Below, piece after piece: positions 43,864 through 61,865 of a stretch of DNA of 64,000 bases. The notes below the pieces were generated by a model, which had not been told where the DNA came from, did no database searches, and saw only the letters and a program-made list of their open reading frames with translations. Location of the stretch: the NCBI GenBank assembly GCA_963738835.1, contig CAVTYH010000009.1, positions 77 through 64,076 of the forward strand. Reading direction: 5' to 3'. How positions within the stretch are numbered: the first letter of the stretch is position 1; every line of letters starts with the position of its first letter. The position numbers and the translations under genes were made by a program. The stretch comes from Pirellulales bacterium. Its GTDB lineage: Bacteria > Planctomycetota > Planctomycetia > Pirellulales > JADZDJ01.

Positions 43864-44768
43864 GTTCTCCGCTGCATTCCCAGCCGATTGCTGATGAAGT
43901 GCGCCAACGCCGCATCAAGCGGATCGCTGGTGCGGACCAGCTTGTAGTCAACGGCGTTTTGAGAGCACGCTCGGCGGATCTCTTCTAAGTAAGCGTTCAA
44001 AGCTTCCAGGTAACCCTCGCGCAGCGCCCGGGGATTGCACGTCAAATTCTCGGGCAATTCCAAACCTTCAAAGCGTGTGGGGCCGGAGAATTGAAAATCG
44101 AGTTCGTCATCATCCAAAACGTGCAGCACCATGACGTCATGGCCACGCTGGCGCAGCAGTTTGATGCCTTTGATGAAACCGGCGCGCGGCGCCAGCAAAT
44201 CCGACAAGATGATCATCATCCCGCGGTGCGGAAAGTTCTCGGCGGCGTTGCGGAGAATCTGCTGCAAATCGGTCTTCTTCTGAGGCGCGCTGACTGAGAG
44301 CGATTGAATGATCGAGTGCAAATGGCTGCGCTTGGTGCGCAGCGGCACGGTCGCCCGCACCGCCTCGTCGAAAGCAATCAAGCCTACGGCGTCTTGCTGT
44401 CGCAGCAGCAAATATGCCAAGCTTACGGCGGCGGTGCAGGCGTATTCGTACTTGTCCATTGGTCCGCGGCCGTAACGCATGCTGTTGGAAACATCGACGA
44501 CCAGCGTGCACCGCAAGTTGGTTTCTTCCTCGAACTGCTTGACGTAGAATCGATCTTGCTTGGCCCAAACTTTCCAATCGACGTGCCGTAAGTCGTCGCC
44601 CAACGTGTATTCGCGGTGCTGCAAGAATTCGACCGACTGCCCGAAGTGCGGACTGCGGTGCATGCCGGAGAGAAATCCCTCGACAATGTGCCGAGCGCGC
44701 AGGTCCATCCTGGCGATGCGCTTGATGGCCTCGGGATGCAGGAAGCGTTTGTTATCGACTGTGGCCAC
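43860..44768 (-). CDS. DUF58-domain protein
   Basis: GQSVEFLQHREYTLGDDLRHVDWKVWAKQDRFYVKQFEEE...VVDVSNSM. 4-nt overlap with the next gene. Confidence 0.85.
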   Translation of the reverse strand: MATVDNKRFLHPEAIKRIARMDLRARHIVEGFLSGMHRSPHFGQSVEFLQHREYTLGDDLRHVDWKVWAKQDRFYVKQFEEETNLRCTLVVDVSNSMRYGRGPMDKYEYACTAAVSLAYLLLRQQDAVGLIAFDEAVRATVPLRTKRSHLHSIIQSLSVSAPQKKTDLQQILRNAAENFPHRGMMIILSDLLAPRAGFIKGIKLLRQRGHDVMVLHVLDDDELDFQFSGPTRFEGLELPENLTCNPRALREGYLEALNAYLEEIRRACSQNAVDYKLVRTSDPLDAALAHFISNRLGMQRRT

Positions 44769-44870
44769 GAGGGGTGAATGTGTGAAGGGGTTGACAAGTG
44801 AAAAAGTGACAAAAGCAATCGTGGTCGCTGTGTAGCGGCGGGGCTATGTCCTGCACTCGCGACGCACAAT

Positions 44871-45923
44871 CTACGACGCAAAAATCTTTTGAAACCGCGA
44901 ATCGCTGGTCAGGTCGCTCTCTTTCGTCGGCGTGATGTCAATCAGACGATTGACAACATCGTCGGAGCCAATCCCTTCGCTTTCAGCGGAAAAATTCACA
45001 ACTAGGCGATGCCGCAGCACCGGTTTGGCAAGCGCTTGAATGTCTTCCGTGGAAACGTGGGTCCGCCCGTGCAGCAGCTCGCGCGCTTTGCCGCCGAGAA
45101 TCAGGAATTGAACCGCTCGCGGCCCGGCGCCCCAGGAGATTTGATCGTTGATAAAATCCGGGACTCCTGCTTCGCCGACGCGGGTTTGCCGGACGAGCGA
45201 AAGTACGTAGCGGATGACGTGATCGGTGACGGGCACTTCGCGGACCATGTGTTGCAACTCGATAATCTCATCCGCGGTAAGCACTGGCACAATGTGATCG
45301 GCCATCACTGCTGTGGTGCGGCGCGCGATTTCAAACTCCTCGCCGAAGTTCGGATAATTCACGAAGATTTTGAACATGAATCGATCTTGCTGCGCCTCGG
45401 GCAACGGATACGTCCCTTCCTGCTCGATTGGATTTTGCGTGGCCAGCACAAAGAACGGATCGGCTAGTTGATGCCGTACGCGGCCGACCGTGACTTGTCG
45501 TTCCTGCATGGCTTCTAACAGCGCGGCCTGCGTTTTCGGCGGGGTGCGGTTGATTTCGTCGGCCAAAATGACGTTGGCGAACAGCGGCCCCTCCAGAAAA
45601 CGGAATTCGCGGCTGCCGGTGCTGCGGTTCTCTTCGATGATTTCCGTGCCGGTGATGTCGGCGGGCATCAGGTCGGGAGTGAATTGAATGCGGCTGAACG
45701 AAAGATTGAGCGCTCGGGCCAGCGTGCTGATCATGAGCGTCTTGGCCAGCCCCGGCACACCTTCCAGCAAACAGTGGCTGCGGCTGAAGAGCGAAATCAA
45801 GAGCTCTTCAATAACCTGATTCTGGCCAACGATCACTTGCGAAAGCTGCTGTAGAATTTTCTCGCGAGCTTCGTTTAGTTTGCGAATGGCGACGGAATCG
45901 GGCTGGAAAGCAGTATCAGACAT
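44871..45923 (-). CDS. MoxR-family AAA+ ATPase
   Basis: [17 protein letters not shown]...[12 protein letters not shown] (Walker A), [11 protein letters not shown] (Walker B), [26 protein letters not shown]. Confidence 0.9.
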
Positions 45924-45988
45924 GAAGTGGGCTCCAAGTTGGAAGGACGAATCGCTGACTCGTCGATTGCGCGGTTAGGTGCTGAAAA

Positions 45989-47035
45989 TCAGCGCTGATA
46001 AATCGGGAGGATGTTGTTGTCGAATTGCAGAATCGTGAGGTTGACCGCGGTGGTGTAAATCGGACCAACATAGCCTTGATTCCAATACATGCCGTTGCGG
46101 TCTTCAGAGGCTTCATTTACCAGGCGGGTGTAAATCTGATCGCGATATTTCTCCCACTTTTCGCCCCCTTCGCGGTACATGACCTGAGCGTAGTAATAGT
46201 GGGCATAGTGCCAGTGGCCAAAGCTTTGATTGCTGATGTTGTTCAGGTTTTTTTCGGAATACGCCAGCATTTTGGGTACGTACTTGTCTTCGTAATCGCC
46301 GGCGTTGAACAAGCAGGCGATGGCGGCGGCAGTGATGGCTGGCCGCGGACCGCCACCTTTGGAACTGTACTGCACAGCGCCTTCATCAGGCAGAATGCAA
46401 CTGTGGATATAGCCGATTGCCTTGTCGATGATTTCTTTGGGAACGGTAATGCCGGCGTTGCGGCAACCGCGGAGGCCCTGGACCTGAGTGATGGTGGTGG
46501 AGCCTTCGTCAAAACCACCGCCGTCTTTGGCACTAACGTAGCCCCAACCGCCGGCATCGGTTTGTGCCCGTCCGCAGAATTCCACCGCTTTGGTCAGCAC
46601 CTGAATTAGTTGCTGCCGGCGGGCTTCGTCTTCCTCTTCCCCCAGCACTTGCGAGAGGAACAGCATCGAGTAGCCGTGGCCGTAGGTGTAACGGTCGTCG
46701 CGCGTCGGATCGCCGATCAGGCCGTTCGATCGGGCGTGGCTGCACAAATAATCGACCGCCCGACGGATGTTCGGAGCATATTTGCCTTGCGTCGTGGTAG
46801 AGCCTTCTTGCAACAGCGCGACACCTGCAAGTGCCGTCATTGCGGTCGGATAGAGCCCATCTTTTGCAGACCATTGCCCGAGCCGAGATTGTGTGTTGGC
46901 GACCCAATCGAGCCCGCGAGAGATGCAGCGTTCCACGCGCGGATCTCTCTTCCCTGCGGCCTCGCTGCTGCCGCAGTAACACAGACTGCTAAGTGCAACC
47001 AGTACTGTAGTAACCCGCTTGAAATGCGAAACCAT
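45989..47035 (-). CDS. secreted prenyltransferase/squalene-oxidase-repeat (alpha-alpha toroid) protein
   Basis: Signal peptide MVSHFKRVTTVLVALSSLCYC plus QTDAGGWGY-type repeats. Start set at ATG 47035 rather than 47185. Confidence 0.75.
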   Translation of the reverse strand: MVSHFKRVTTVLVALSSLCYCGSSEAAGKRDPRVERCISRGLDWVANTQSRLGQWSAKDGLYPTAMTALAGVALLQEGSTTTQGKYAPNIRRAVDYLCSHARSNGLIGDPTRDDRYTYGHGYSMLFLSQVLGEEEDEARRQQLIQVLTKAVEFCGRAQTDAGGWGYVSAKDGGGFDEGSTTITQVQGLRGCRNAGITVPKEIIDKAIGYIHSCILPDEGAVQYSSKGGGPRPAITAAAIACLFNAGDYEDKYVPKMLAYSEKNLNNISNQSFGHWHYAHYYYAQVMYREGGEKWEKYRDQIYTRLVNEASEDRNGMYWNQGYVGPIYTTAVNLTILQFDNNILPIYQR

Positions 47036-47105
47036 GATATGAGCGGAGTTGGAGTTGTTAATTGAGGAAACGAACCGCGATAAGCGCAGCTTCAAACTGT
47101 AGACA

Positions 47106-50100
47106 TTATTTTTGTCCGGGCGCCGCCCCCGCGACATTTGGTTGTGCGTTCGATCCAGCTTGTGGCTGTTGTTGGGTGCTGGCACCGCCTGTCGACATCA
47201 TGCCGCTGAGCGCACGAAATATTGAACCCGCCTTGGTGCGTTCCAGTGCCGAAATTGGTTTTTCAAACACGCCGTCCTGAAATGGTGGCTCCGGCGGGAC
47301 TGGAGTGTCGGTAAATTTCAACGCGATCGCATCGGGAGACATCTGCAATGTCACGGTATGATCTTCCAGGTTGCCCAAAGCATCGATCACGGTGACGACC
47401 TGCGGCAGCTTATCGTCCTCATACAATACGCGGCCGTTGCGCTTGTCGAGGCACAAAATAGAGCCCTGAATTTGCTGCGGACGATTGTTCGCCACGGTTT
47501 GCACATTGCGAGTAAACACCAGCAATGGCAGTTCGGTTGGCAGATCGATTGCCAGGCACTGCTGCACCAACTTTGCCGGGGCTGGCCACATCGGCTTTCC
47601 CGTGGTTCGGTCGAAAGCGTAGACGCTTCCGGTAATTTCCGGTCGCACTTCAATGCCCATCGGATTGTAGCCGTTGTAACCCTGCATGGTCGCGGGAATT
47701 CGATTGGGATTGGAACCAACGTTGTTACGCGCCGTGAGCAAAATGTCCTGCTTCGATGAGCGCAAGACATAAATTGATTTCAAATTCTGCTCTTTTTCCA
47801 GTTGTTCGTTGATCAACTTCTTGCCGTCAGCCAGAGAGAGCATGACGAACTTGCCGTCGGACTGCATGAGAGCAGCTGAATCGCCGCCGACGATGGTTCC
47901 CTGCACTCCCGCCGAAAAGCTCTCGGTCCAAACTTCGCGCTGTGTCAATGGATCGATCAGCTTCAGCACCTGGCTGCCATCGGCGACCCCCTTCCACGTC
48001 AATAAATAGCGACCGTATGTGGTCCAGCGCTGTTCAGCTGGCGGCACGGCGCACTCCGACAATAGTTCGCCATCCGCAGCGCGGACCGCCCAGGCTTTGC
48101 CTTCAGTGGGCGAGGCCAGGATTAGAACTTCGTCGTCGCCAAAGATATCGCAGCCTGGCTCGACACCATGGCGAACCCAGCGCACGTTGCCAGTCAGCGG
48201 ATCGACGGCGAAGACATCGCGCCCCCGCTGGTAAAAGACCGCGGTCTCTGTGCAGGGCCCGACATTGCCGATGGGCTGGGTTGCCGCCCGCATTTGAATG
48301 CGGCGACCTCCCCAGGGCTGCATGGCCACCATCGGCACCTGATACATCCCGATGGGCGCCGTATCAACCAGATCTTTTCGCCACAGAATACGGTTCACGC
48401 TACGCGCCTGGCGATTTCAACATGTCGACTGCAATGGCTTGCGATCCCGTACAAACCACCAGCACGTGTCCGCAAACGGTCGCATAGGCGGCGGCCATCC
48501 AATTCGGCCCTTGCTGAAAAACGCCGTTTTGATTTCCGTCGTTGAGTCCAAAGCGAAATCGCTCTTTGCCCAATCCGTCGTATCCGACAATTTGCGACGA
48601 CTCTGGGCTGAAGCCGATGGTGATGTCCTGAACGAAAGGCTGGCGGCTGCCGCGAATTTCCAGAGGATACAGGCGATTCACGCCAGGCAGATGTGGCGCT
48701 TTCGAGGCCACGCGTTCGATTTTCACTTCTCCTTCTGGCCAGGGCCCGCTGTTCGATTTGGCTTGCCGCAACGGCGATTCGGCCGGAAGCGAGGCCAGAA
48801 TTTGCTGCACGCTCTTGCCGTTCAAGACTGGCTTTTCGCCCTGCGACGCTGCCAGGTTTCGGTATTCCCGCAATGCCTGATCCACCTGCCCGGCATCGTT
48901 TAACAGTGCGGCGAGCTTCGCACTGGCGGCGGCGCGGCGGGTGTCATCGGTCGATTTTTGGATTTGCTGCAATAGTTGCTCGCGCTCCAGCAGTGTATCC
49001 GAGCCGGTTAACTTTTCCGCCAAGAGTTCGCGAGCACGGTTGGCCGCGGGATGATCACCGAAGCAATCGATGAATTGCCGCAACTGGTAGATGTTGCCAC
49101 TGTCGGATGCCTGTTTCAGCTGTTCGTTCACAGCGGCATCGACCTGGGGCAGATCGGCCTGGTGCGCGGCGGCCAGCAGCGATTGAAACTGCGCACGAAT
49201 CCATGCCGATCGGGTCACGGCGAAACTCGAATCAATCTCTTCCGGCTCGTCAGGCTGTGGTCCTAGCGCCGCAAGCTTCAGGTAAGCATCCAGGGCCGCA
49301 ATCGTGTTGCCGTTCTTTTGCAAGCCGCTGGCCAGCACACGGAGAAACACTGCACGTTCGTGATCCAGTTGGACGAGTTGCTCAAGATCATCAACGTCGC
49401 TTTTATGCTTTTGAAAATCTTTGCTGAGGCCGGCGATCAGCACTTCAATCAGCAGATCGCGGTTGAAGGGGCTATCGTCGGACTGAAAGGCACGACGAAC
49501 GTCGGCGATGGCCTCGTCCACTCTTCCGTCTTCCAACGCAATTTCTCCGCGATGGGCTAGCGCCCATGAATCGTTTGGGTTCTTCGCCAGTGCCGCGGCC
49601 ACGCGCTCTTGGAGCGGCTCAAGTTGAAAGAACGTTTCGACATAGTCGACACCCTGCGAAATCACTTCTCCCTGGTAGCAAATGAGATTGCCGGGAATCG
49701 TGCCTCTGCGTGATTTGGCCTCGGCCGTGATTTTGGCAGCGTTCAAATCGATACGAGCGACCTCGGCGGTCGTGAGCGGTAGGAAGTAATTGTCGCCAGC
49801 CATAAAACCGCGGCCGCTGGGCATTGCCGTGGGGGGCAGTTCCAGGTTTTGCGGTTTCCAGGCGGGCTTGCCATCGGCCAGCTTGACCGCCGTCAGTTGC
49901 CGCTTGCCGACCAGCACAATATTCCCCTGATGAACGCCAGCTACGAAGAGGTTCTCGCCACGCTCGAGCGGCTTATCCCATTTCACTTTTCCATCTTGCA
50001 AATCTAAACAATGCAACTGACTGGAGTCGGTGGGAGTAATGACCACGCTGCCGTCGGCAATGGTGACCGTTGAATCGAGCCAACGATCGGCCGGATTGGA

Positions 50101-52011
50101 ATTGGGAATCTGAACATTATTCCAATTCTGCCGCATCATGGCGGGATTGAATTGCGGACGCGCATATCGGTAACCCCACAGTAGCGAGCGATTGGGTACA
50201 TCTACAGCCACCACCGCGCCGGCCGCCGTGGGGCAAACCAAAACGCCGTCAGCATAGCTGGGTGTGCAACCCGCCAGACGTCGATACGGATCGTTCTGTA
50301 TGTTTTGATTCGGCTCGACCACCGCGATCTGCTGCGACCAATCTAAATGACCCGTTTTTGAATCGAGCACACACAGTTTGATTTCCTGCTTGATTTCGGC
50401 CAACACGTATAACTTGTCTTCGAGCGGCAGCGGCGGTCCCAGGAAAAATGCGTTGGCCAATTGCACTTCGTCCTCGCCAGACTGTCCGCCAACAACCCAT
50501 TTCAACTTGCCCTGGGTGCGCAGTTCGACGGCCGCCAACTTATTTGGTTTGAACGGAATCGAAATGCCGTCGAACACGAGACCGCCACGGATGGGCCGAC
50601 CATTCACGATTAACCGTCCACCGCCATTGACGATAATTTGGCCGTTCATGTCGGGATCGGGCGGGCTGTCCAAATCGTCGATTAGGTAAACTCGCTCGCC
50701 GTCGCTGGAAAGCGTGCCGTAGGTGGCGTCTTCCCAAAATCGTTCGCGCAGCGCCGGGCTGTTTTTCGGATCGAACCGTGCGGCCGTGTTGGCGCTGGAA
50801 GCGGCAATTCTTTGTTCCAGCGACGATTCGCTCAGCGACGGCCACCAGCTGCGTTTGCCGGTAGCGAAATCGACGGCCACCAGATTTCGTGAAGTGCGCA
50901 TCAGCACCACATCGCCAACGGCCAAGGGCTGCATCACAGGCAGTGCGGGCAATTGCTGATCGATATACTCTTTGCGCTTATCGACCAGCGCCTTCTCGAG
51001 TTCCGGATGATTCGTGGTCGAGACGCGCCACCGCGGATTCATCAGCGGCATTCCGCCGGCGCTGTTGGCATTGCGGGCCGGATTCCCATGCACCAAAGTC
51101 CAGTCACGAATTTCCTCCGACGAGGAAGTTTGCAGATTGAGTTGCGCATTCTGTAGCCATGCAATCGCTGGCTCTCTTTCGTTGAACAGCCTTTTCGGCT
51201 TGCCGGCAATTTGCACCGTGGCCTGCGGATCTTTTTTGCGAAGCCTTTCGAGGGCCTCCTTGGCGAGGTCTTGCTTGCCGCCCTTCAGGTAACTAGTCGC
51301 CAGGAGCACGGAAAGAGATGGCTCCAACGCAGCGGCTGCGGCCGGCGCGTCGCTCAATCGTTTGAAGCACTCGGCCGCCGCCAGCGGACGATTGTGATCC
51401 AATAGCCTACGGCCCAACAACAACGTGGCTTGGTAGCCTGCTTGCGTGTGAAAGAACCGGCGAGCCACTTCTTCCAGTTTTGCAGTGTCGCCGCATGTTG
51501 CCGCGGTGGCTAGTAATTGCCGAGCCTTCGCGCCAAATTGCAGTTCGTACGCCTGCCGTCCCTCGGGAGGCATTTCACCAATCAGTCGCTGCGCTTGGGC
51601 CTTCAGACTGATATAACTCTGCTTATCGGCAGGCGTTTGAAAAAAGAAATCTTCGTTGCGCTGAAGAATCTCGTCGAGCAGCGTGAGCGAGTCGCTGTAA
51701 CGTCCGTCATCGAGCAGTTGTTTGGCTCGTTCCCACTGTCGAGTCGAATCGCGATCGACTGGGAGAAACACACCATCCAGCGCGTCGATTTCCATATCAC
51801 TCTGCCCCGGCGGAGGCCTGCGGAAACCGAATTGGACAAACCCGCCCCCCGGTGCAATCTGCACTTGAACCGGTAGTTGAGCCGCTGCCCGCTGAGCCGC
51901 TGCCCCGTAAAGAATGACCCCAGTCAGACCCACAAAAGCCGTCACTACCCTGGCCAATCCCGGCCAATTTCGGGCACGGCGAACGTTTCGATCCATCATG
52001 GCCTTCCTCAT
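47106..52011 (-). CDS. giant (~1630 aa) secreted TPR + PQQ-like beta-propeller protein, probably one gene split by a frame break near 48412-48420
   Basis: ORF 48400..52011 ends ...SQAIAVDMLK in the middle of a propeller-blade motif. The frame of 47106..48398 is open from 48416 as NRQARSVNRILWRKDLVD..., which completes the A-D-x-x-G-x-x-LW blade pattern. Length is 3n+1. Confidence 0.65.
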
Positions 52012-52563
52012 CAGGCGGCGACCGGCCTAATTGCCGAACGTCACCCAAGTTAGTGTTCCCAGCGACGAGAAAGTTCAACGCCGGCAATCAGCCAAAGATC
52101 GACTTGCTGGCCCGGCGGTTGGCAGGTTCCCTGGCCTTCCCTGCCCGAAGGCATTCCGCGTGCCGACATTTGATCTAAGTTTTTGCCACCTTTTATCTTA
52201 AACCGCATTCGCCGATTCGGCAACCAAATCTGGCTCGGTGGCGGAGGGGCTAGTTGACGGCGCAAAAAAACCCGAGAAATCTGGCTTTCTGCCGCTACAT
52301 TGCCGCCCACAGGTGCTACGTTCCATAAGTGGGCTGAGCTAACGCACAAGGCCTGGGAGTGAGATTATTCGACCCGTGGCTTTGCCGCAACCATTCGGCG
52401 GTGTCGGTTTTGCCGGACTGACCGGCTACGACGACCTCGCCCGAAATTGCGCAACATGCCAGAACGCGCCGCTCGACGAACAGCGGCCAGCGTGAAACAT
52501 GGGCCGTCCCGCCCGGAACCCTGTTTTTTCCGCAAATTCTGCGGATTTTACGGGTTCTTAGGA

Positions 52564-52592
52564 TTGAAATTTTGGCCAACTGCGATTAAATC
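52564..52592 (+). promoter_or_regulatory. candidate sigma70-type promoter for the HU-like gene
   Basis: TTGAAA (52564-52569), 17-nt spacer, TAAATC (52587-52592). It lies about 70 nt upstream of ATG 52661, which has an AAGGAGG RBS at 52644-52650. Confidence 0.35.
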
Positions 52593-52660
52593 AGCACATT
52601 CCTACGTCAAACCGATACGTGTCTCTCAACTCAACGTACCCGCAAGGAGGGTTCTCGATT

Positions 52661-52996
52661 ATGGGGAAAGTCGCCACGAATTCCGCGAAAAAGTCGCCGT
52701 CGAAGAGTGAAGTTCTGGCTTCCATCTCGGAAGCTACGAGTGTTGCCAAGAAGGATGTGGCCGCAGTCCTTGAGGCTCTGGGCAACGAAATCAAGAAGGC
52801 TCTGGGTGCCAAAGGCCCCGGCACCTTTGCGATTCCCGGCTTGGTGAAAATCGAAAAGAAGAAAGTGCCGGCCCGTCCGGCCAAGAAGGGTGTGCCCAAC
52901 CCGTTCAAGCCAGGCGAGCTGATGGATGTTGCCGCCAAGCCGGCTAGCACGAAGATTAAAGTTCGCGCTTTGAAACAGTTGAAGGCGATGGCCTAA
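52661..52996 (+). CDS. HU/IHF-family DNA-binding protein with Lys-rich N-terminal extension
   Basis: KSEVLASISEATSVAKKDVAAVLEALGNEIKKAL...GTFAIPGLVKIEKKKVPARPAKKGVPNPFKPGE...KVRALKQLK follows the HU fold pattern. Strong RBS. Confidence 0.8.
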   Translation: MGKVATNSAKKSPSKSEVLASISEATSVAKKDVAAVLEALGNEIKKALGAKGPGTFAIPGLVKIEKKKVPARPAKKGVPNPFKPGELMDVAAKPASTKIKVRALKQLKAMA

Positions 52997-53022
52997 TCGC
53001 CGATCGACGGCCAAATTCTTTC

Positions 53023-53090
53023 ACGGCCGCTCGAGTGTGTCATTCACGCCTTGCTGCGCGGATACACGCTTGAGCGGCCGTTGGTTTTTT
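53023..53090 (+). terminator. rho-independent terminator after the HU-like gene
   Basis: acggccgctcgagtgtgt (53023-53040) pairs with acacgcttgagcggccgt (53064-53081), with 2 mismatches or wobbles. It is followed by tggtttttt. Confidence 0.6.
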
Positions 53091-53107
53091 CATCCTCACC
53101 TTCGCGC

Positions 53108-54286
53108 TCATTTCTGAATGAGTTCAATCTCGGGCGCACTTTCATTCGGCGTGTGCTTTAAAAGTTCGCTCAATTGAAAATTGTGATACGGCTGATCGGC
53201 GGCCGATTGCCCGTCGCTGCTGGCATTGGCGATCCATATTTTGGTGCTCGCGGGCTCGAACAGTACGCTGTGCAAAGTGGAGTGCGTGGCAATTGGCCGC
53301 TCCAACAATTGCCGCACGCTGCTGGCATCGAACTTGCCGTGGCCATCGGCAGCACGCCGCGCCAATTCGTCATAGCGACTGCCGGCGGAAAGCAACACGC
53401 AATCGGCCACCGGCTTGGGGAGCAGCGGATGCGCCTTGCCCGGTTCGATGGTTTCGAATTTATCCCAGCCCGCGGCCACGCCCACCGCGCGGTTCGTCTT
53501 GCCGTCGGCAATGACGTAGTAGTATTCGCAAGTTCGCTTGGCTTCGCGAAACACGGCCAGCGCCTGATCTAAATCGCCGGCCTGTTGCAACACTTCGCGC
53601 ACCAAGACGGCCATCGGTGTGCCGTTCCAGTGCCCAATGCCGCCGCCGCCCATTTCGCCGATCGAAACGTGCTGGGCGTTCATCCCCGTGACCGAGCCAA
53701 TGAAACCGGCAAATGTCACGTTGGCAAACGGAATGCCGCCGTCCGGCTCGCCGATAATCAGCACCGCGTGGTCTTGCAAATGCCAATCGCAGGAGTAATC
53801 CAAAATGCGGCCGTGATACAGCGTGCCATCGGTCGTGGCCGAGTTCATCACGGCAAACCCGCTGCAATGAAACAGCTCGGGCAAAAAGTTGGCCGCCGCC
53901 ACGTCGCCCAGTTTCAAATCGGCTCCTGCCGCCACACCGGCCAATTCCTGCCGATACCAATCGGGCACATGCGGCGCTTGCACCACGGCGAGCGTGTCGA
54001 TAATCCACCGCGGCTTTACTTCGATGCCGCCTATTTCGACTGCCGAGACGCGCTTGCTATCCAAAACATTGTGCAAGTTCTCGCGCACCGATTCCTTCAG
54101 GAGCGCGCCATGCTGATAGCCCATCTCGTACGGTGTGCCTTTCAGATGCAGCACCGGGTAACCATCGACCCGCTCCAACCAACCTTGTCCGCAGCGCGCC
54201 ACCGTTTCGGCTAGCGCCGTGGCTGAGAGCACGAGAACAAGCAGCAGTGCGGTCAGTAGATTTGAAACGATGAATCGGCGTCGCAT
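53108..54286 (-). CDS. secreted peptidase C45 / acyl-CoA:6-APA acyltransferase-like Ntn hydrolase
   Basis: Signal peptide MRRRFIVSNLLTALLLVLVLSATALA. GTPYEMGYQHGALL, putative nucleophile context LFHCSGFAV, and YHGRILDY. GGAGG RBS at 54295-54299. The ORF-track N-terminal extension runs through repeats. Confidence 0.75.
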   Translation of the reverse strand: MRRRFIVSNLLTALLLVLVLSATALAETVARCGQGWLERVDGYPVLHLKGTPYEMGYQHGALLKESVRENLHNVLDSKRVSAVEIGGIEVKPRWIIDTLAVVQAPHVPDWYRQELAGVAAGADLKLGDVAAANFLPELFHCSGFAVMNSATTDGTLYHGRILDYSCDWHLQDHAVLIIGEPDGGIPFANVTFAGFIGSVTGMNAQHVSIGEMGGGGIGHWNGTPMAVLVREVLQQAGDLDQALAVFREAKRTCEYYYVIADGKTNRAVGVAAGWDKFETIEPGKAHPLLPKPVADCVLLSAGSRYDELARRAADGHGKFDASSVRQLLERPIATHSTLHSVLFEPASTKIWIANASSDGQSAADQPYHNFQLSELLKHTPNESAPEIELIQK

Positions 54287-54335
54287 ATTTAATTCCTCCG
54301 TGAAGTTGCCAATGTGGATCGCGATCTTACCCAAG

Positions 54336-54357
54336 CCCAGGGGTTGCAACCCCTGGG
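54336..54357. repeat. perfect 22-bp palindrome CCCAGGGGTTGCAACCCCTGGG, copy 1
   Basis: Seen directly. It shares flank ccaagccc...ttgc with copy 2. A half-site caagcccaggggttgc occurs at 15218-15233. Confidence 0.9.
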
Positions 54358-54422
54358 TTTGCGCCGCGGGCGATAACTTTATAAACAAGGAACCACGGCC
54401 GCAAGATCGCGCAAGACATGGT

Positions 54423-54648
54423 GAATTTTGTCGCGGCCGTTGCGCACCCTTGCGCCCTGTCATGTTTTGGATTTGGCAAGATTTCTCGAACGAAATGCGC
54501 GCCTGCAGTTTTGTCGCAACCGAAGGGGTCCCACTTTTTTTTGCGCAAAATCCCCCAATTCTGTCGCAACGCGTCTCAATTTGGCCCGAGATTTCCCGAG
54601 CGCCGCCCACGCCGGCAGCGACAAAACTCGCCGAATTGTGTCGCAAAG
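54423..54648 (+). promoter_or_regulatory. iteron-like array: five copies of (A/G)-A/T-T-T-N-TGTCGC
   Basis: gaattttgtcgcgg 54423-54436, cagttttgtcgcaacc 54506-54521, caattctgtcgcaacg 54556-54571, inverted agttttgtcgc at about 54616-54629 (minus strand), cgaattgtgtcgcaaag 54632-54648. Confidence 0.5.
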
Positions 54649-54733
54649 TGAATTCATAGCGATTCGCTTTCTCATCGAGTGCGCCAGGTTCAAGCGTTGC
54701 CGCTATTCAAGTTGCGTCGAGACGTACTCCAAG

Positions 54734-54755
54734 CCCAGGGGTTGCAACCCCTGGG
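54734..54755. repeat. perfect 22-bp palindrome CCCAGGGGTTGCAACCCCTGGG, copy 2
   Basis: Identical to 54336-54357. Confidence 0.9.
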
Positions 54756-54928
54756 CTTGCCGGGACACTCATGCCAGGCATTGCATGACAAGTGTACATC
54801 CTAACACATACGTGGCCTGATTTGCAGGCCCTTCATTTGCACCCGCGATTCAACTTGCAGTCGCCCCGGTCGCGGGGTACTCTTGGTCGTTATTCAAGCT
54901 GCCCGTCTTCTGCGATTAAAGCCAATTC

Positions 54929-55201
54929 ATGCCCATTTCCTGGAACGAAATCCGCCACAACGCCGTCGCTTTTGCCCGCGATTGGGCCGACGCCGCGCGG
55001 GAAGATAGCGAAGCTCAAACGTTCTGGAACGAATTCTTCGCTGTCTTCGGCATCAAACGCCGCACCGTGGCCAGCTTTGAAGAACCCGTCCGGAACATCG
55101 CCGGCCGCTGGAGCTTCATCGACCTCATCTGGCCCAGAATTCTGATTGTCGAGCACAAAGACCGCGGTAAGTTCCCATCGAGATGGACTCGAATCGCCTA
55201 G
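54929..55201 (+). pseudogene. N-terminal ~75-aa stump of an MmeI/type-IIG-like N6-adenine DNA methyltransferase-restriction enzyme
   Basis: MPISWNEIRHNAVAFARDWADAAREDSEAQTFWNEFFAVFGIKRRTVASFEEPVRNIAGRWSFIDLIWPRILIVEHKDRGK matches the conserved N-terminus of this family of roughly 900-1000 aa. After EHKDRGK the sequence diverges and stops. Confidence 0.6.
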
Positions 55202-55260
55202 TTTTGCCGCCGATACTAAGATAGAGACAGTACACTGCCTTTTGACTGCAAACGGTTTCC

Positions 55261-56433
55261 ATGGCTACCACAGTTTCTGTCAATCCAGAACTCATTCGCT
55301 GGGCGATCGATCGCTCCCGTTTGTCGGCAGAGGAATTGGGGAAATTCCCAATCGAGAAATGGAAAAGCGGTGAAAAGCAACCAACGCTAATCCAGTTGGA
55401 AGCTTTCGCAAAGCGAACAATGACACCGTTTGGGTATTTGTTCCTTTCCGAGCCGCCGGAAGAAGAATTGGCGATTCCGGACTTCCGAACTCTGGGCGAC
55501 ACTCCCATTGATCGTCCTAGCCCGAACTTAATCGATACACTCCAAAGTATGCGACGGCGGCAAGCTTGGATGCGGGATTACCTAATCGAACAGGGGCAAG
55601 AAAAGCTGCCTTTTATAGGTGCAGTTAAACGCCTTGATGGAGTCGACGAGCTAGCGGAACGAATTCGTCAAACGTTGGGGTTACCACGGAATTGGGCATC
55701 GAAATACTCAACTTGGGAACATGCACTGCGCATGTTGCGCACAGCAGCGGAAGAAATCGGTGTGATGGTAGCCACGAGCAGCATCGTGGGATTGAACACT
55801 TCTCGTCCGCTCGAACCAGAGGAATTTCGCGGGTTTGTGCTTTCCGACAGCTATGCGCCGCTAATCTTTGTAAATGGCGCGGACTCCAAGTCAGCTCAGA
55901 TGTTCACAATGGCGCATGAACTCGCGCATTTGTGGCTAGGTCGCGATGGGCTTTTCAATCTCATCAATATGCAACCGTTCGATGATGCAACGGAAAGATT
56001 CTGTAACCAAGTTGCCGCGGAGCTTCTGGTTTCTCGCCAACTCCTTGCGGAACGATGGGAGGAGGCTAGGGCTACAGACAAACCTTTTGATGCTATTGCG
56101 CGCTGGTTTAAGGTTAGCCCACTGGTGGCGGCGCGTCGTGCTTTGGATCTGCGATTGATCAACAAGGCAGCATTCTTCGTCTTTTACAATCAATACAAAG
56201 AAGAATGGCAACAACAGAAAGCTCGTACCAAGGCGTCCAAAAAAGGCGGTCCGAACTTCTACGACGTCCAGGACGTACGCTTAGGCCGACGATTTGCCTA
56301 TGCAGTCATTCGCGCTGCTCGGGAGGGACGGTTGCTATACCGTGACGCTTACCAATTAACGGACTTGAACGGCAACACTTTTGACCGCTATGCCGTTACC
56401 CTCGCCAAAAGGATGAGGGATGAGCGCCAATAA
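55261..56433 (+). CDS. XRE-type HTH fused to ImmA/IrrE-family zinc metallopeptidase
   Basis: N-terminus KWKSGEKQPTLIQLEAFAKRTMTPFGYLFL (HTH) and the HEXXH motif in FTMAHELAHLWLG. 390 aa. Lower GC than flanks. Confidence 0.8.
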   Translation: MATTVSVNPELIRWAIDRSRLSAEELGKFPIEKWKSGEKQPTLIQLEAFAKRTMTPFGYLFLSEPPEEELAIPDFRTLGDTPIDRPSPNLIDTLQSMRRRQAWMRDYLIEQGQEKLPFIGAVKRLDGVDELAERIRQTLGLPRNWASKYSTWEHALRMLRTAAEEIGVMVATSSIVGLNTSRPLEPEEFRGFVLSDSYAPLIFVNGADSKSAQMFTMAHELAHLWLGRDGLFNLINMQPFDDATERFCNQVAAELLVSRQLLAERWEEARATDKPFDAIARWFKVSPLVAARRALDLRLINKAAFFVFYNQYKEEWQQQKARTKASKKGGPNFYDVQDVRLGRRFAYAVIRAAREGRLLYRDAYQLTDLNGNTFDRYAVTLAKRMRDERQ

Positions 56434-56938
56434 ACGTTATTTGCTTGATTCAAACGTCTTCATGCAAGCCCATCGACAGTATTATGGGTTCGATATTTGC
56501 CCTGGTTTTTGGCGTTCGCTCGTTTTGCAGCATAGCAACAAGCGAATTTTTAGCGTTGATCACGTGAAATCGGAGATTGCTAGAGGCAAGGATGCTCTCA
56601 AGAATTGGGCAACAACAAAAGCACCCGATGCGTTTTTCAAGAAGACCGATGATAAAGCAGTCATCAATTGTTTTGCACAATTGATCGACTGGGTGGAAAA
56701 AGAGCCACAGTATGCACCCGAGGCTAAAGCCGAATTCGCCTCTGTCGCTGATGGTTGGGTGATCGCGCATGCAAAAACTAACAATCTGGTTGTTGTTACC
56801 CAAGAAGAATACGCACCTGATGCCAAAAAGAAAGTGCCGATGCCGAATGTGTGCATCAACTTTAGTGTGGAATTTGTCAACACGTTTTCGATGCTCCGTG
56901 ATCTTGGAGTGCGATTTGGCCTGAAAAAGCGAAATTGA
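56420..56938 (+). CDS. DUF4411-family (PIN-like nuclease fold) protein
   Basis: N-terminus YLLDSNVFMQAHRQYYGFDICPGFWRSL is the DUF4411 signature as I recall it. 172 aa. It overlaps the peptidase gene by 14 nt. Confidence 0.75.
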   Translation: MSANKRYLLDSNVFMQAHRQYYGFDICPGFWRSLVLQHSNKRIFSVDHVKSEIARGKDALKNWATTKAPDAFFKKTDDKAVINCFAQLIDWVEKEPQYAPEAKAEFASVADGWVIAHAKTNNLVVVTQEEYAPDAKKKVPMPNVCINFSVEFVNTFSMLRDLGVRFGLKKRN

Positions 56939-57062: not shown

Positions 57063-57368
57063 TCACACTTTTCTTTCGTCGACGCCGGAACGCAGGTGAA
57101 TGGTCTTGGTGTCGAGATTGTGAGCGGTCGTCAGATAGCGGATGGTGCCGCTTTTGGCCCGCATCAGAATGGAATGCGTGATGGCCGTCCTGCCGCGCAC
57201 TTCCACTCCCTGGAGAAACGGGCTATCGCAAATGCCAGTGGCGGTGAACAGAATTTCTTTTCCCCGCGCTAAATCTAACGAACGAAACGTGGCATTCAGG
57301 CGATCGCCTCAGCCGGCCTCGAGCAGCGATTTTCGCTCGGCTTCGTCGCGCGGCCAGATTTTGGCTTG
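57063..57368 (-). pseudogene. glpX: diverged duplicate of the last ~100 codons of glpX, with an in-frame TGA
   Basis: Colinear and gap-free with 60819-61125 at roughly 85% identity. It translates as ...KIWPRDEAERKSLLEAG*GDRLNATFRSLDLARGKEILFTATGICDSPFLQGVEV...HLRSGVDERKV*. The TGG Trp codon of the intact gene is TGA here (about 57308-57310). Confidence 0.85.
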
Positions 57369-57370
57369 GG

Positions 57371-57426
57371 AAAAAAAAGGGGACATTCTACTTTATCAAA
57401 TAATGTAGGATGTCCCCTTTTCTTTC
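57371..57426. terminator. bidirectional terminator-like hairpin (A-run, 13-bp stem, T-run) exactly at the end of the glpX homology
   Basis: aaaaaaaaggggacattctac-tttatcaaataat-gtaggatgtccccttttctttc, with one mismatch in the stem. Confidence 0.6.
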
Positions 57427-57540
57427 TCCCATTCAACGCATCTTGCCTTGGACGCATTCACGGTAATTTTGCAGTGACCCAGGAGTCGTGACTTCATAAC
57501 AGTAGACTCTCCGCACGCAACTAAGCTTGGAATTCATTTG

Positions 57541-57797
57541 TCAGATAAGACAAATAAATATCGCTATCTGAATTAAGAGCCCAATGGCGAACCCCAAAAT
57601 CGCTCGCTTGAACGGAGTGAACACCCCGGCCCCGATCATCGCACCGGCGCCGAACCAAAGAACCAACAATGTCTGTTCAGAAATTACGTTTGGACGCCCT
57701 GGGCGTGGCGATTGTTGAACATGATCACGAGCATGCCGCACCCGAGAGCAATGAATGCAATTCCGACAAACAATCGTTTCAAAGAGAATTGCCACAT
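57541..57797 (-). CDS. small membrane protein with planctomycete-type M-x-x-FSL-K-R-L N-terminus, possibly frame-broken near 57685-57720
   Basis: ATG 57797 gives MWQFSLKRLFVGIAFIALGCGMLVIMFNNRHAQGVQT*, with the stop at 57684-57686. The adjacent frame continues ...LLVLWFGAGAMIGAGVFTPFKRAILGFAIGLLIQIAIFICLI* to 57541. Confidence 0.35.
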
Positions 57798-58046
57798 GCC
57801 CACCATCATAACCGATCAGCGTTGCAAAGCGGTGGGCGGAGCGTATCCTTAGGAAATGCCTACGGATGAAGCAAATAGCGGTACATGTGCGTGACTTGTG
57901 TTGTCTGACAGAATATTGAGCAACCGTATCGGCCTCGGCGGGCACAGGCTAGTTTAACGGCTTTCGGGCAGTGATTCCAAATTCAGACCACCGCCTGTAA
58001 AGGGTCAGTTTGAAGAGCATAAACAGAGTGGCCACGTTGAATGGTT

Positions 58047-58230
58047 CCGGTCCTTCGGACCTCACGAATTCTATTTCGCCGTATCCTGCCCCAACCTGAC
58101 GGTTGGGGCTATTTCCTGCCGGACCTTCGGCCTCAGATCCGTAGGCGCGGAGGGCTGATAGGGAATAGCCCCGATCGTGAGATCGGGGTCGACGTTCGCG
58201 CAAAATCGATTCAGAGGTCCGAAGGACCGG
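58047..58230. other. 184-nt nested-hairpin element (structured RNA or MITE-like repeat)
   Basis: A 17-nt perfect inverted repeat ccggtccttcggacctc (58047-58063) / gaggtccgaaggaccgg (58214-58230) encloses three stems. These are hairpin 58089-58108, a 12-bp stem 58105-58116 / 58161-58172, and hairpin 58169-58188 with a GTGA loop. Confidence 0.5.
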
Positions 58231-58444
58231 CACAACGAAGCGGTTCAGATTGACAAATATCATCGGTCTTACGGCAACAATGTCGGTCGTCTGTCGTTTG
58301 GAAAAACGATTTTTGATCGCTCGATCTCTCACCGTAAAGTCGTGCCGAACCTTGGAATTCAAATTGAGGCCAAAACTTTTTGAATCCGCGGAACTCATCT
58401 CCAAGCTGGGTTGACGACATGCAAGCGACGACGACAATGCGCTC

Positions 58445-58609
58445 ATGAAGAAAAAGACCAGCACTCCAGCGGCGATTAGCGAATTGATCAAAGAATACCC
58501 CGCCAAGAGTGCCAGCGAGATTGCGAAGATGGCGAAAGGGCTGGGATACACCGCCGTTTCGACGTCCATCGTGAAGACGATTATGGCCCGAACGTCGCAT
58601 AGCAAATAA
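58445..58609 (+). CDS. small (54 aa) basic helical protein, candidate DNA-binding
   Basis: MKKKTSTPAAISELIKEYPAKSASEIAKMAKGLGYTAVSTSIVKTIMARTSHSK. It is too short for the ORF track. It resembles small K-rich HTH-like proteins. No clear RBS. Confidence 0.35.
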   Translation: MKKKTSTPAAISELIKEYPAKSASEIAKMAKGLGYTAVSTSIVKTIMARTSHSK

Positions 58610-58966
58610 ATTCAGCGGTGCGTCGAGACGCCTAAATTTCAGGCGAGAAAAGTTCGCGGGAACCAATTCCGCTGTTTTTGGTTCTTGGAAGCATTCAAGC
58701 CGTCGTCAGATTGCTTTCGAAGAAGACTTCAAAAAAACACCCGCGTTTAGAGCGCGTCTCACAACCATGTAGCGGCGGCTGTCCTCAGCCGCCAGCGAAC
58801 CGCTGGGGACAGCGGTCGCTACACTATGATGGGACGCGCTCTAGCCCAGTAGTTTGTGGGCGATGAAGTACACGATTGCCGCGGCAATGGTCAGCAGCGC
58901 CGCTGCACTGCGTGAGCAACCGGCGCTCGTGGGAGGCGCGGTGAACTTTTCGGGAGATTCCTGAAA

Positions 58967-59119
58967 CTATCGCGATTGCAAGGCTTCTACGAAGTCTTTG
59001 GCGTCCTTGAGCCCGGTGTTGGCCGCCTTGCGATACAGCTTGATCGCCTCGATTTTACGGCCGGCGAAAACGGCGGCTATGATCTGCTGAACCTGCTCGT
59101 CGGGCAGCGATTTGTCCAT
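58967..59119 (-). CDS. small protein resembling the ribosomal L7/L12 C-terminal domain (50 aa to an in-frame TAG)
   Basis: MDKSLPDEQVQQIIAAVFAGRKIEAIKLYRKAANTGLKDAKDFVEALQSR*. The IEAIKLYR...GLKDAKD.VE motif is present. AAGG lies about 13 nt upstream. The frame stays open for 41 more codons after the TAG. Confidence 0.5.
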   Translation of the reverse strand: MDKSLPDEQVQQIIAAVFAGRKIEAIKLYRKAANTGLKDAKDFVEALQSR

Positions 59120-60752: not shown

Positions 60753-60818
60753 GCGGCGCTCTCTGCGGTGAAATGATTACAGAAAGAGGAGTCTGGCGAT
60801 GCGAGCAGCCGGAGAGCG

Positions 60819-61865
60819 TCAAACTTTTCTTTCATCGCCGCCGGAACGCAGGTGAATGGTCTTGGTTTCGAGATTGTGGGCGGTGGTCAGGTAGCGGACG
60901 GTGCCGCTTTTGGCCCGCATCAAAATGGAATGAGTGATGGCGGTTCTGCCGAGGACTTCAACTCCTTTGAGGAACGGGCTGTCGCAAATGCCGGTGGCGG
61001 CGAACAGAATTTCGTTGCCCCGTGCCAAATCGAGAGAACGGAACGTGGTGTTCAAGCGGTTGCCCCAGCCGGCCTCGACCAGCGACTTTTTTTCAGCCTC
61101 GTCGCGCGGCCAGATTTTGGCCTGCATGCCCCCACCCAGACAGCGCAGCGCCGCCGCCGCCAACACGCCCTCGGGCGCGCCGCCGATGCCGACGTACAGG
61201 TCGATCATCGATTCGCTCAGGGCCGGGGCCAACGCGGCCGAAATATCGCCATCGACAATCATTCGCAGCGAAGCGCCCACGCGGCGCACTTCGTCGATGT
61301 ACTTCTGATTGCGCGGCCTGTCTAAAATCATCACCACCACGTCGCGCACTTGCTTGCCCAGAATTTTGGCGGTAATGCCAATCACGTCCGCCAGCGGCGC
61401 ATCGATGTTGATGGGCAAACTGCGATCGTTGATCCAAGCCTTGCGAACCGCCGACGGATAGGTGAGCTTCTGCAAGTAAAAAGCCGGAATCTCTTGCAAC
61501 GCCGGCTGACTGCCGTTTTCGGGCATCGCCGCTGCGATGCAACTGATGGCATTTGGCAGGCCGCGGCCGACATTGGTTGTGCCATCCACCGGATCGAGCG
61601 CAATATCGAACCGCGGTGTTCCAGTGCGCCAAGTGCCCACCCTTTCCCCTTTGAACAGTCCGGGCGCTTCGTCCTTAATGCCCTCGCCAATGACCACTTC
61701 ACCGCTAATTTCCATCAAATCGAACATGCCGCGAATGGCGTCGCAGGCCGCGGCATCGGCGGCTTCCTTGTTGCCTTTGCCAATCCATTGCATGCAATTG
61801 AGGGCGGCAATTTCCGTGGCCCGCAGAAAATCGAACTCGTGCAGTCGTTGTACATCAGCAGTCAT
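60819..61865 (-). CDS. glpX: class II fructose-1,6-bisphosphatase
   Basis: 348 aa with ATEIAALNCMQWIGKGNKEAADAAA, IALDPVDGTTN, VGIGGAPEGVLAAAALRCLGG and LFAATGI. Confidence 0.9.
   Translation of the reverse strand: MTADVQRLHEFDFLRATEIAALNCMQWIGKGNKEAADAAACDAIRGMFDLMEISGEVVIGEGIKDEAPGLFKGERVGTWRTGTPRFDIALDPVDGTTNVGRGLPNAISCIAAAMPENGSQPALQEIPAFYLQKLTYPSAVRKAWINDRSLPINIDAPLADVIGITAKILGKQVRDVVVMILDRPRNQKYIDEVRRVGASLRMIVDGDISAALAPALSESMIDLYVGIGGAPEGVLAAAALRCLGGGMQAKIWPRDEAEKKSLVEAGWGNRLNTTFRSLDLARGNEILFAATGICDSPFLKGVEVLGRTAITHSILMRAKSGTVRYLTTAHNLETKTIHLRSGGDERKV

Follow-up and report, generated by a model that had tools for sequence, protein, structure and literature searches.

VapBC52 (Rv2515c/Rv2514c) of Mycobacterium tuberculosis is the closest described relative of the gene pair considered here, an antitoxin/sensor gene followed by a toxin gene at positions 55261 to 56938 of a 64,000-nucleotide (nt) stretch of a Pirellulales chromosome (contig CAVTYH010000009.1), referred to below as the window. 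In mycobacteria, the antitoxin gene likewise precedes the toxin gene, and Rv2514c was reported in 2019 to be toxic in M. smegmatis and to be rescued by Rv2515c (PMC6504116). The system was characterised in 2026, with the structures 9VZY and 9VZZ (PMC13273310). VapC52 is a PIN-fold tRNase that cuts anticodon or variable loops, and the 46-kDa VapB52 binds the toxin dimer in a 1:2 ratio through its N-terminal helix-turn-helix (HTH) and C-terminal domains. VapB52 also carries an IrrE-type peptidase, which is activated by single-stranded DNA (ssDNA) and cleaves VapB52 itself near a conserved F75-R76 motif. Release of the toxin by this self-cleavage is what its authors infer, and they proposed that C229 acts as a fourth zinc ligand keeping the peptidase auto-inhibited. 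Overexpression of VapC52 protects from phage D29, on which basis a role in phage defence was proposed. The structural neighbours listed for VapB52 include PrpR, IrrE and C.Csp231I, and CapP serves as the model for ssDNA-activated peptidases of the IrrE family (all PMC13273310).

The pairing itself was described earlier: HTH-DUF955 together with DUF4411 was presented in 2017 as a predicted three-component toxin-antitoxin (TA) system (PMC5499597), and in the NetFlax network the ImmA/Rosmer antitoxin hub (D25) pairs with PIN-like toxins (PMC10440598). A previous annotation made from the letters of the window (the sequence-only reading) had taken the two genes for a TA or abortive-infection style module in which a PIN-like effector is paired with an ImmA/IrrE-HTH protein, and homology to VapBC52 supports this. 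It had also called the system uncharacterised and DUF4411 a domain without defined activity or trigger. Neither view holds, given the 2017 description of the pairing and the work on VapBC52 (PMC6504116, PMC13273310).

We consider it probable that the cassette is a VapBC52-type, type II TA or abortive-infection module, lying behind the first 81 codons of an MmeI-family restriction-modification (RM) gene. Judged by sequence, it appears to be a divergent new member of an already characterised family. The features concerned are the following, with the evidence for each in brackets.

54929..55171, + strand: remnant of an MmeI-family (type IIG/IIL) RM gene, first 81 codons (Pfam, PADLOC, homology to contig L082)
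55172..55260, + strand: junction of stub and cassette, with spacer (alignment with contig L172)
55261..56433, + strand: antitoxin/sensor gene, probably VapB52-type, 390 residues (Peptidase_M78, 9VZY_A, AlphaFold2 (AF2) model)
56420..56938, + strand: toxin gene, probably a VapC52-type DUF4411 PIN-like nuclease, 172 residues (DUF4411, 9VZY_D/9VZZ_A, AF2 model)

The antitoxin and toxin genes

Both genes have the boundaries given by the sequence-only reading (55261..56433 and 56420..56938), the antitoxin gene coming first and overlapping the toxin gene by 14 nt. The same 14-nt overlap is found in all five homologous loci examined that have an intact upstream gene (L087, L089, L090, L091 and L172). 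Profile searches, proposed earlier as a check, returned Peptidase_M78 for the 55261-56433 protein (E 1e-17, Pfam), its HEXXH motif being present as HELAH, and DUF4411 (PF14367) for the toxin (E 1.6e-53, profile positions 1-159 of 159), for which the PIN match is weak.

The best sequence matches of both proteins in the Protein Data Bank (PDB) are two chains of one complex, 9VZY. The antitoxin matches 9VZY_A with E 2.9e-17 (32% identity over 329 residues, aligned over 11-355), and the toxin matches 9VZY_D with E 1e-6 (30% identity over 142 residues) and 9VZZ_A with E 7e-6. As in VapBC52, a DUF4411 toxin lies downstream of an antitoxin of about 390-415 residues, the architecture of which is an N-terminal HTH, a D74-F75-R76 segment, an M78 peptidase with an HEXXH+Glu site (H219-E220-x-x-H223 and E245) and a C-terminal helical domain. 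The N-terminal HTH has no Pfam call. It is recognised by homology to the HTH cro/C1 chain of 9VZY and by its model, which folds like P22 c2 and C.Csp231I, and on these grounds the proposed fusion of an XRE-like HTH to the peptidase is upheld.

Residues were mapped to VapBC52 from HMMER alignments. In the antitoxin, F75/R76 correspond to F75/R76 of VapB52 with the same numbering, H219/H223 to H216/H220 and E245 to E245. In the toxin, D10 aligns with D6 of VapC52, the PIN aspartate mutated in the inactive D6A variant, and E52, D111 and E129 are also shared. The sequence-only reading had suggested looking for a PIN-type acidic tetrad, and by alignment acidic residues of this kind are conserved: in 52 toxin homologues D10, E52 and D111 never vary, and at least 90% retain E129. 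Similarly, H219, E220, H223, E245, D74 and R76 are invariant in 48 antitoxin homologues, with F75 at least 90% conserved.

Predicted structures agree with these assignments. The toxin AF2 model (predicted local distance difference test, pLDDT, 90.7) is VapC-like, its nearest solved folds being VapC toxins. The antitoxin model (pLDDT 87.1) has a helical N-terminus, a peptidase core like that of IrrE/PrpR and helices at 302-389; among solved structures it most resembles PrpR, PprI/IrrE (one of the entries with ssDNA) and HTH repressors. The fold library is older than 9VZY and 9VZZ, and the nearest-fold lists therefore exclude VapBC52 itself.

The M78 domain and a fold common to IrrE/PprI and PrpR could also be read differently, the peptidase-HTH protein being an induction switch of the IrrE/DdrO or ImmA/ImmR type and DUF4411 a regulated housekeeping or repair nuclease rather than a toxin. 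We regard this as very improbable. The best whole-length match of the protein is the antitoxin chain of a solved TA complex, while IrrE appears among its PDB matches only at E 0.007; for the homologous mycobacterial pair, toxicity and rescue by the partner are on record (PMC6504116); and neither a separate gene for an XRE-type repressor substrate nor mobile-element genes lie beside the pair. IrrE(PprI)/DdrO of Deinococcus and ImmA/ImmR of Bacillus ICEBs1 do share the M78 fold and the HEXXH+Glu site with the window antitoxin. However, those peptidases cleave a separate XRE repressor to induce genes, whereas here the HTH is fused to the peptidase and the partner is a nuclease toxin.

By analogy with VapBC52, a predicted course of events in this host, from the trigger and the cleavage site to tRNA targets and defence against phage, can be sketched for a VapBC52-type module. 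The 390-residue antitoxin would hold the DUF4411 toxin dimer inactive through its N-terminal HTH and C-terminal helical domain. ssDNA arising from phage infection or DNA damage would activate its IrrE/ImmA-type zinc peptidase, which would then cut the antitoxin itself at the conserved Phe75-Arg76 linker. With the N-terminal domain lost, the toxin would be freed to cut tRNA anticodon or variable loops, leading to growth arrest and an aborted infection.

Several observations weigh against so close an equivalence. Identity to VapBC52 is only about 30%. The switch cysteine C229 of VapB52 aligns with F232, and Phe occupies this position in at least 90% of the window subfamily (48 homologues); lacking the switch Cys, the peptidase may be gated by ssDNA differently or not at all. 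The Asp of the VapC52 'PDVC' motif is replaced by Asn (N143) throughout the window subfamily (52 homologues). The sequence alignment with VapB52 does not extend to the last ~35 residues of the antitoxin; in VapB52, it is the C-terminal domain that blocks the active site of the toxin. Protection from phage was observed when VapC52 was overexpressed alone, and not when the pair was co-expressed (PMC13273310); even in mycobacteria, a defensive role of the native module is a proposal. Finally, a sigma-70-like promoter was looked for at the locus and none was found. Besides these substitutions and the low identity, the window pair differs from VapBC52 in having a planctomycete host, in being nested in an MmeI remnant and in belonging to a subfamily known from sequence.

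Three further systems share parts of this design. Firstly, the phage-defence TA system RosmerTA (RmrT/RmrA) also combines an HTH and ImmA-type zinc-peptidase antitoxin with a swappable toxin, and ten PADLOC RmrA models match the window antitoxin, all weakly (E 2.7e-9 to 9e-4; two of them span residues ~30-314). The window toxin, by contrast, matches none of the PADLOC models, RmrT included, and the characterised RmrT is a membrane-depolarising protein, not a PIN nuclease (PMC10440598). Secondly, the best PADLOC match of the antitoxin peptidase region is capP (E 4e-14), of the CapP/CapH pair that regulates the cyclic oligonucleotide-based antiphage signalling system (CBASS). Neither a CapH-like substrate gene nor CBASS genes (CD-NTase or effector) lie beside the pair, and it further differs from CapP/CapH in that a peptidase on the VapB52 model cuts itself rather than its partner, and in that the window antitoxin lacks the Cys switch. 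Thirdly, canonical VapBC modules share the PIN fold, the acidic residues at active-site positions (by alignment) and, as the top folds of the toxin, VapC itself, but the window antitoxin is about four times larger than VapB, is an enzyme and is unrelated to it.

Both cassette genes are under purifying selection relative to their closest relatives. Compared with L172, the antitoxin gene has a non-synonymous divergence (dN) of 0.065 and a synonymous divergence (dS) of 1.17, hence a dN/dS of about 0.06; compared with L173, the toxin gene has a dN of 0.115 with dS saturated, and dN/dS is well below 1. This bears on the notion that the cassette is a decaying, non-functional relic like the neighbouring MmeI gene. 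The surrounding patch does hold two other gene fragments, and there is an otherwise identical Logan contig in which the peptidase gene is frameshifted. Nonetheless, with both open reading frames (ORFs) full length for their family, catalytic and motif residues intact and dN/dS at about 0.06-0.07, we find a relic extremely unlikely. The Logan contig (L001, run ERR11718635, positions 1-1218) encodes a toxin 100% identical to that of the window, and its peptidase gene is split in two frames, either as a real frameshift variant or through an assembly error. Exact-protein look-ups with the toxin and with the nearby glpX product returned this 1.2-kb Logan contig only, or nothing, and a search for sequencing runs yielded none.

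The cassette was said to be visibly richer in AT than its flanks, and this is borne out: GC content is 0.51 in the antitoxin gene and 0.45 in the toxin gene, compared to 0.57 for the window. GC content at third codon positions (GC3) is 0.52 and 0.47, respectively, against about 0.71 in neighbouring genes. The low-GC tract extends beyond the cassette, to about 58.9 kb. In L172/L173, the cassette has the same low GC3 beside high-GC3 flanks despite a dS above 1, and for this reason we rejected low GC3 as a sign of recent acquisition. More distant cassette homologues have host-like GC3.

Relatives of the antitoxin are abundant, forming more than 5,000 clusters (at 90% identity) at E <= 0.001. The closest 120 of these have about 392 residues and 62-88% identity, and the source names among the closest clusters are Thermoguttaceae, Gemmataceae, Planctomycetaceae/Planctomycetota and Phycisphaerae. 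The pair also occurs, with its genes side by side in unchanged order and at ~32% identity, on two predicted viral contigs of IMG/VR (L179 4873-6486 and L180 193-1744). From 88% identity down to this level, the pairing and the 14-nt overlap persist. Its contexts vary: in one homologous locus, it is accompanied by an Eco57I-type enzyme, a transposase, an AAA_21 ATPase and an SNF2 helicase; in a second, it lies downstream of MotA/ExbB, FRG and DUF1828 genes; and in a third, it is among ordinary planctomycete genes. By itself, the cassette adds little, beyond showing that the VapBC52-type module is abundant outside actinobacteria. The large subfamily that lacks the proposed cysteine switch is nevertheless a useful natural test of that mechanism.

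The MmeI remnant and the loss of its body

The segment upstream of the cassette, 54929-55171, is an MmeI-family remnant and not a gene, its remaining ~820 codons being gone. The ORF at 54929-55201 encodes 90 residues, reading past the end of homology to a stop at 55201. It matches Pfam MmeI_N over profile positions 2-72 of 181 (E 2e-15) and the PADLOC model REase_MTase_IIG over positions 3-82 of 912 (E 8e-19). The PD-ExK nuclease motif (IDL...VEHK) is retained, while the nuclease domain is cut roughly in half. Matches listed in a search with the stub protein were all of 157 residues or fewer, and the closest homologue with a complete gene was recovered instead from contig L082, where the MmeI-type gene appears as two separate ORFs, with 150 and 754 residues. 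The stub is 78% identical in amino acids to the L082 N-terminus over codons 1-81, and similarity ends after LIVEHKDRGK. The sequence-only reading had thus been right about the stump and its last homologous residues, but had made it some six codons too short, at ~75. A tblastn search of the 64-kb window with the 754-residue remainder from L082 gave no match: no helical spacer, gamma-class methyltransferase, target-recognition domain or C-terminal domain is present. It is on this basis that the stub is a true stump and not a frameshifted gene. In L082/L083 (L082 4541-5186), we also observed that the complete MmeI-type gene is followed by a PIN-domain gene and a 68-residue ORF, which resemble a VapBC-like pair in reversed order and would constitute another RM-TA adjacency.

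The stub itself is undecayed. It scores 149 bits, compared to a mean of 153 for longer genes, its GC3 is 0.74, and none of 34 family-conserved positions is changed. A neutral pseudogene of the same age as the junction should have lost several of these positions; the stub is therefore either selected or renewed by recombination from functional MmeI genes. Selection would be expected if the MmeI_N ORF of 81-88 residues were a functional small gene maintained in front of various defence cassettes. The intact ORF, the unchanged conserved positions and the score equal to that of longer genes fit such a gene, as do stubs of similar length on many contigs, including a cluster of 65 members. Other data make it very improbable: 81 residues are about half of the MmeI_N model and would be unlikely to fold alone, and MmeI_C tails on the far side of the cassette (L173, L174), together with direct fusions of stub and tail, indicate one degraded gene. 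Moreover, dN/dS is 0.28-0.50 between stubs and 0.10-0.25 against L085, the comparisons with L085 being the only ones with fuller gene copies and unsaturated dS.

The spacer between the stub stop codon and the next ATG measures 59 nt, in line with the earlier estimate of about 60. Within it, a 20-nt block, TTTGCCGCCGATACTAAGAT, at 55203-55222 is identical in the related contig L172. The segment 55172-55260 may contain the promoter or operator of the cassette and is a candidate for both. Spacers and flanks of the more distant cassette homologues could not be aligned, and no conserved flank or operator was found among them. Around the window cassette, no promoter or terminator call stood out.

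The fate of the MmeI body is best seen in L172 and L173, two JGI contigs with a mutual overlap of 98% identity. The L172 antitoxin is 88% identical to that of the window in amino acids and 80% in nucleotides. This contig starts with ...GTCGAACACAAG (VEHK), the end of the same stub, and shares the spacer with the window. In L173, the toxin gene is followed, about 150 nt further on, by the final 50 codons of an MmeI gene, which share 84% identity with L082 (E 7.5e-23), and then by an esterase gene. Thus, in this lineage the cassette sits exactly between the two ends of an MmeI gene. Homology between the window and L173 stops 11 nt past the toxin stop codon, and the window has no MmeI tail.

Since the junction is at least as old as the 20% nt divergence of the cassettes, it is not a recent event in this genome. 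The data support replacement of the MmeI body by the cassette in an ancestor shared with another lineage, or by a transfer shared with it, and the C-terminal MmeI tail would have been lost later in this genome. The suggestion that the cassette displaced another defence gene therefore stands as regards the place of the MmeI body, as the tail in L172/L173 attests, but the displacement is old, and was inherited or co-transferred. The sequence-only reading had itself named a stump-plus-cassette arrangement fixed in relatives as an ancestral feature as an outcome that would count against it, and the junction shared with the L172 lineage comes close to this. The closest genome, L002 (~82% nt identity), is collinear with the window only over 43745-54219 and then continues with LRR, amt, PII and glnD genes. 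A metagenome scan with glpX yielded nothing closer than 83% amino acid identity.

MmeI ends around other defence cassettes

In the literature on RM mobility, one RM or defence unit is substituted by another between conserved flanks. Here too, related loci have a complete alternative defence module between flanks; the stub carries the MmeI_N nuclease motif and related loci keep the MmeI_C tail. What differs is that the flanks are the two ends of the displaced gene itself and not neighbouring genes.

Two other, unrelated lineages show a comparable arrangement. In L174/L176/L177 (L174 6001-10100), 80 homologous stub codons (VEHKSTG|) are followed by type II RM genes, a methyltransferase (PADLOC E 3e-132) and a restriction enzyme (E 4e-60), with an MmeI_C tail behind the cassette and a second tail remnant further on. 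In L178 (7001-9808), 81-82 stub codons (VEHKTAGR|) are followed by Vsr, a C5 methyltransferase (PADLOC E 6e-166) and a restriction enzyme (E 3e-118). The modules found so far with MmeI ends are therefore a TA pair, a type II N-methyltransferase/restriction enzyme unit and a Vsr/C5-methyltransferase/restriction enzyme unit. In all three loci with real replacement, the junction lies at codons 80-82, 1-3 codons past the EXK motif. In addition, one stub (P0006) is fused in frame, at the same codon, to unrelated sequence, and in two others (P0108 and P0089) the stub is fused directly to the MmeI tail with the whole body deleted, the join in P0108 falling at a shared 'KAH'.

It is tempting to suppose that MmeI remnants are portable homology arms and that the cassette is a selfish module which replaced the RM body by homologous recombination with intact MmeI genes of recipient genomes. 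It would then be spreading at the cost of an RM gene, as opposed to having been inserted once. The junction and spacer common to the window and L172, the MmeI tail behind the toxin gene in L173, the two lineages in which a stub ending at codons 80-82 precedes a complete type II RM cassette (in one lineage with one or two MmeI_C tails) and the body-less stub-tail fusions all point in this direction. So does an undecayed stub of host-like GC3 at an old junction, which fits repeated refreshing from functional genes. On the other hand, the loci examined with DNA context number only three, and two of these were picked partly for stub length. Truncation points in the 120 stub matches listed are spread over codons 62-142 without a peak, many of these short matches probably being frameshifts or contig ends. 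Among themselves, the stubs reach a nucleotide identity of only 68-72%, which would not suffice for recombination between the lineages at hand. No MmeI tail is present in the window, and no recombination breakpoint could be mapped. On balance, we hold recombination through such arms to be unlikely.

The broader proposal, that MmeI ends (the first ~81 and last ~55-100 codons) recur around unrelated complete defence modules as homology arms or as an insertion site, we put forward tentatively, as a doubtful but possible generalisation. Of all that the locus shows, only this recurrence of stubs and tails around unrelated cassettes might be new. If true, it would document a route by which defence genes are swapped via the victim gene's own ends, and would bear on the turnover of defence repertoires. 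Homology arms or an insertion site would also explain why a stub at an old junction looks freshly functional.

The variable patch around the cassette

The cassette lies in a small variable patch, from about 54.2 to 58.9 kb, between housekeeping genes: an AAT-like peptidase gene, an HU gene and a BatA/MoxR cluster upstream, and LTXXQ, DUF1275 and glpX genes downstream. The region had been likened to a defence-island hotspot. No other PADLOC defence match was found within 53-63 kb and the flanks are housekeeping genes, which leaves this part of the proposal weak. There are signs of a small variable patch: synteny breaks off at 54.2 kb, the end of glpX is duplicated, and some of the DNA is low in GC and holds ORFans. 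Local turnover is thus supported, and a defence island in the usual sense is not. The right boundary of the patch is the following feature.

57063..57369, - strand: pseudogenised copy of the glpX 3' end, last ~101 codons, with one in-frame stop (300-nt direct repeat)

This fragment shares 86% identity with the 3' end of the intact glpX (60816-61115), 3.7 kb away. The two copies differ mostly at third codon positions (30 of 43 differences), with a dN/dS of 0.10, a value that led us to reject a duplicate decayed in situ. Because the differences are mostly synonymous, the copies diverged as parts of working genes in different lineages, and either transfer brought one copy in or incoming DNA moved one aside. 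No integrase is encoded in the intervening 3.7 kb, which hold DUF1275, LTXXQ, an L12-C-like ORF and ORFan DNA.

Between the AAT-like gene and the stub, a 53-nt intergenic repeat occurs twice (54310-54362 and 54708-54760), each copy containing the perfect palindrome CCCAGGGGTTGCAACCCCTGGG (0 expected by chance); it is possibly an element like the repetitive extragenic palindromes or a terminator. An inverted repeat at 57370-57426 (GAAAAAAAAGGGGACAT...ATGTCCCCTTTTCTTTC) abuts the inner end of the glpX fragment. With 27-nt arms that are 89% complementary, a 3-nt loop and flanking A- and T-runs, it resembles a bidirectional terminator. The low-GC DNA (0.52) at 57430-58950 holds only ORFs without Pfam or PADLOC matches and includes a 42-nt inverted repeat (58748-58843). 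No Rfam family reached its gathering score and no tRNA was detected; three sub-threshold Acido-Lenti-1-like matches lie at 58089-58242, the best with 31.6 bits against a gathering score of 37.

At the left edge of the patch, the AAT-like peptidase gene as mechanically called (53108-54646, - strand) has an N-terminal extension of ~120 codons that relatives lack. The nucleotide match to L002 begins at 54219, which is also where synteny with that genome ends, and translation probably starts at the MRRRF... codon at 54286. For a 50-residue ORF (58967-59119, - strand), the sole match is to the C-terminal domain of ribosomal protein L7/L12 (E 1.7e-6); on the opposite strand, this ORF overlaps the region annotated as the start of the LTXXQ-family ORF.

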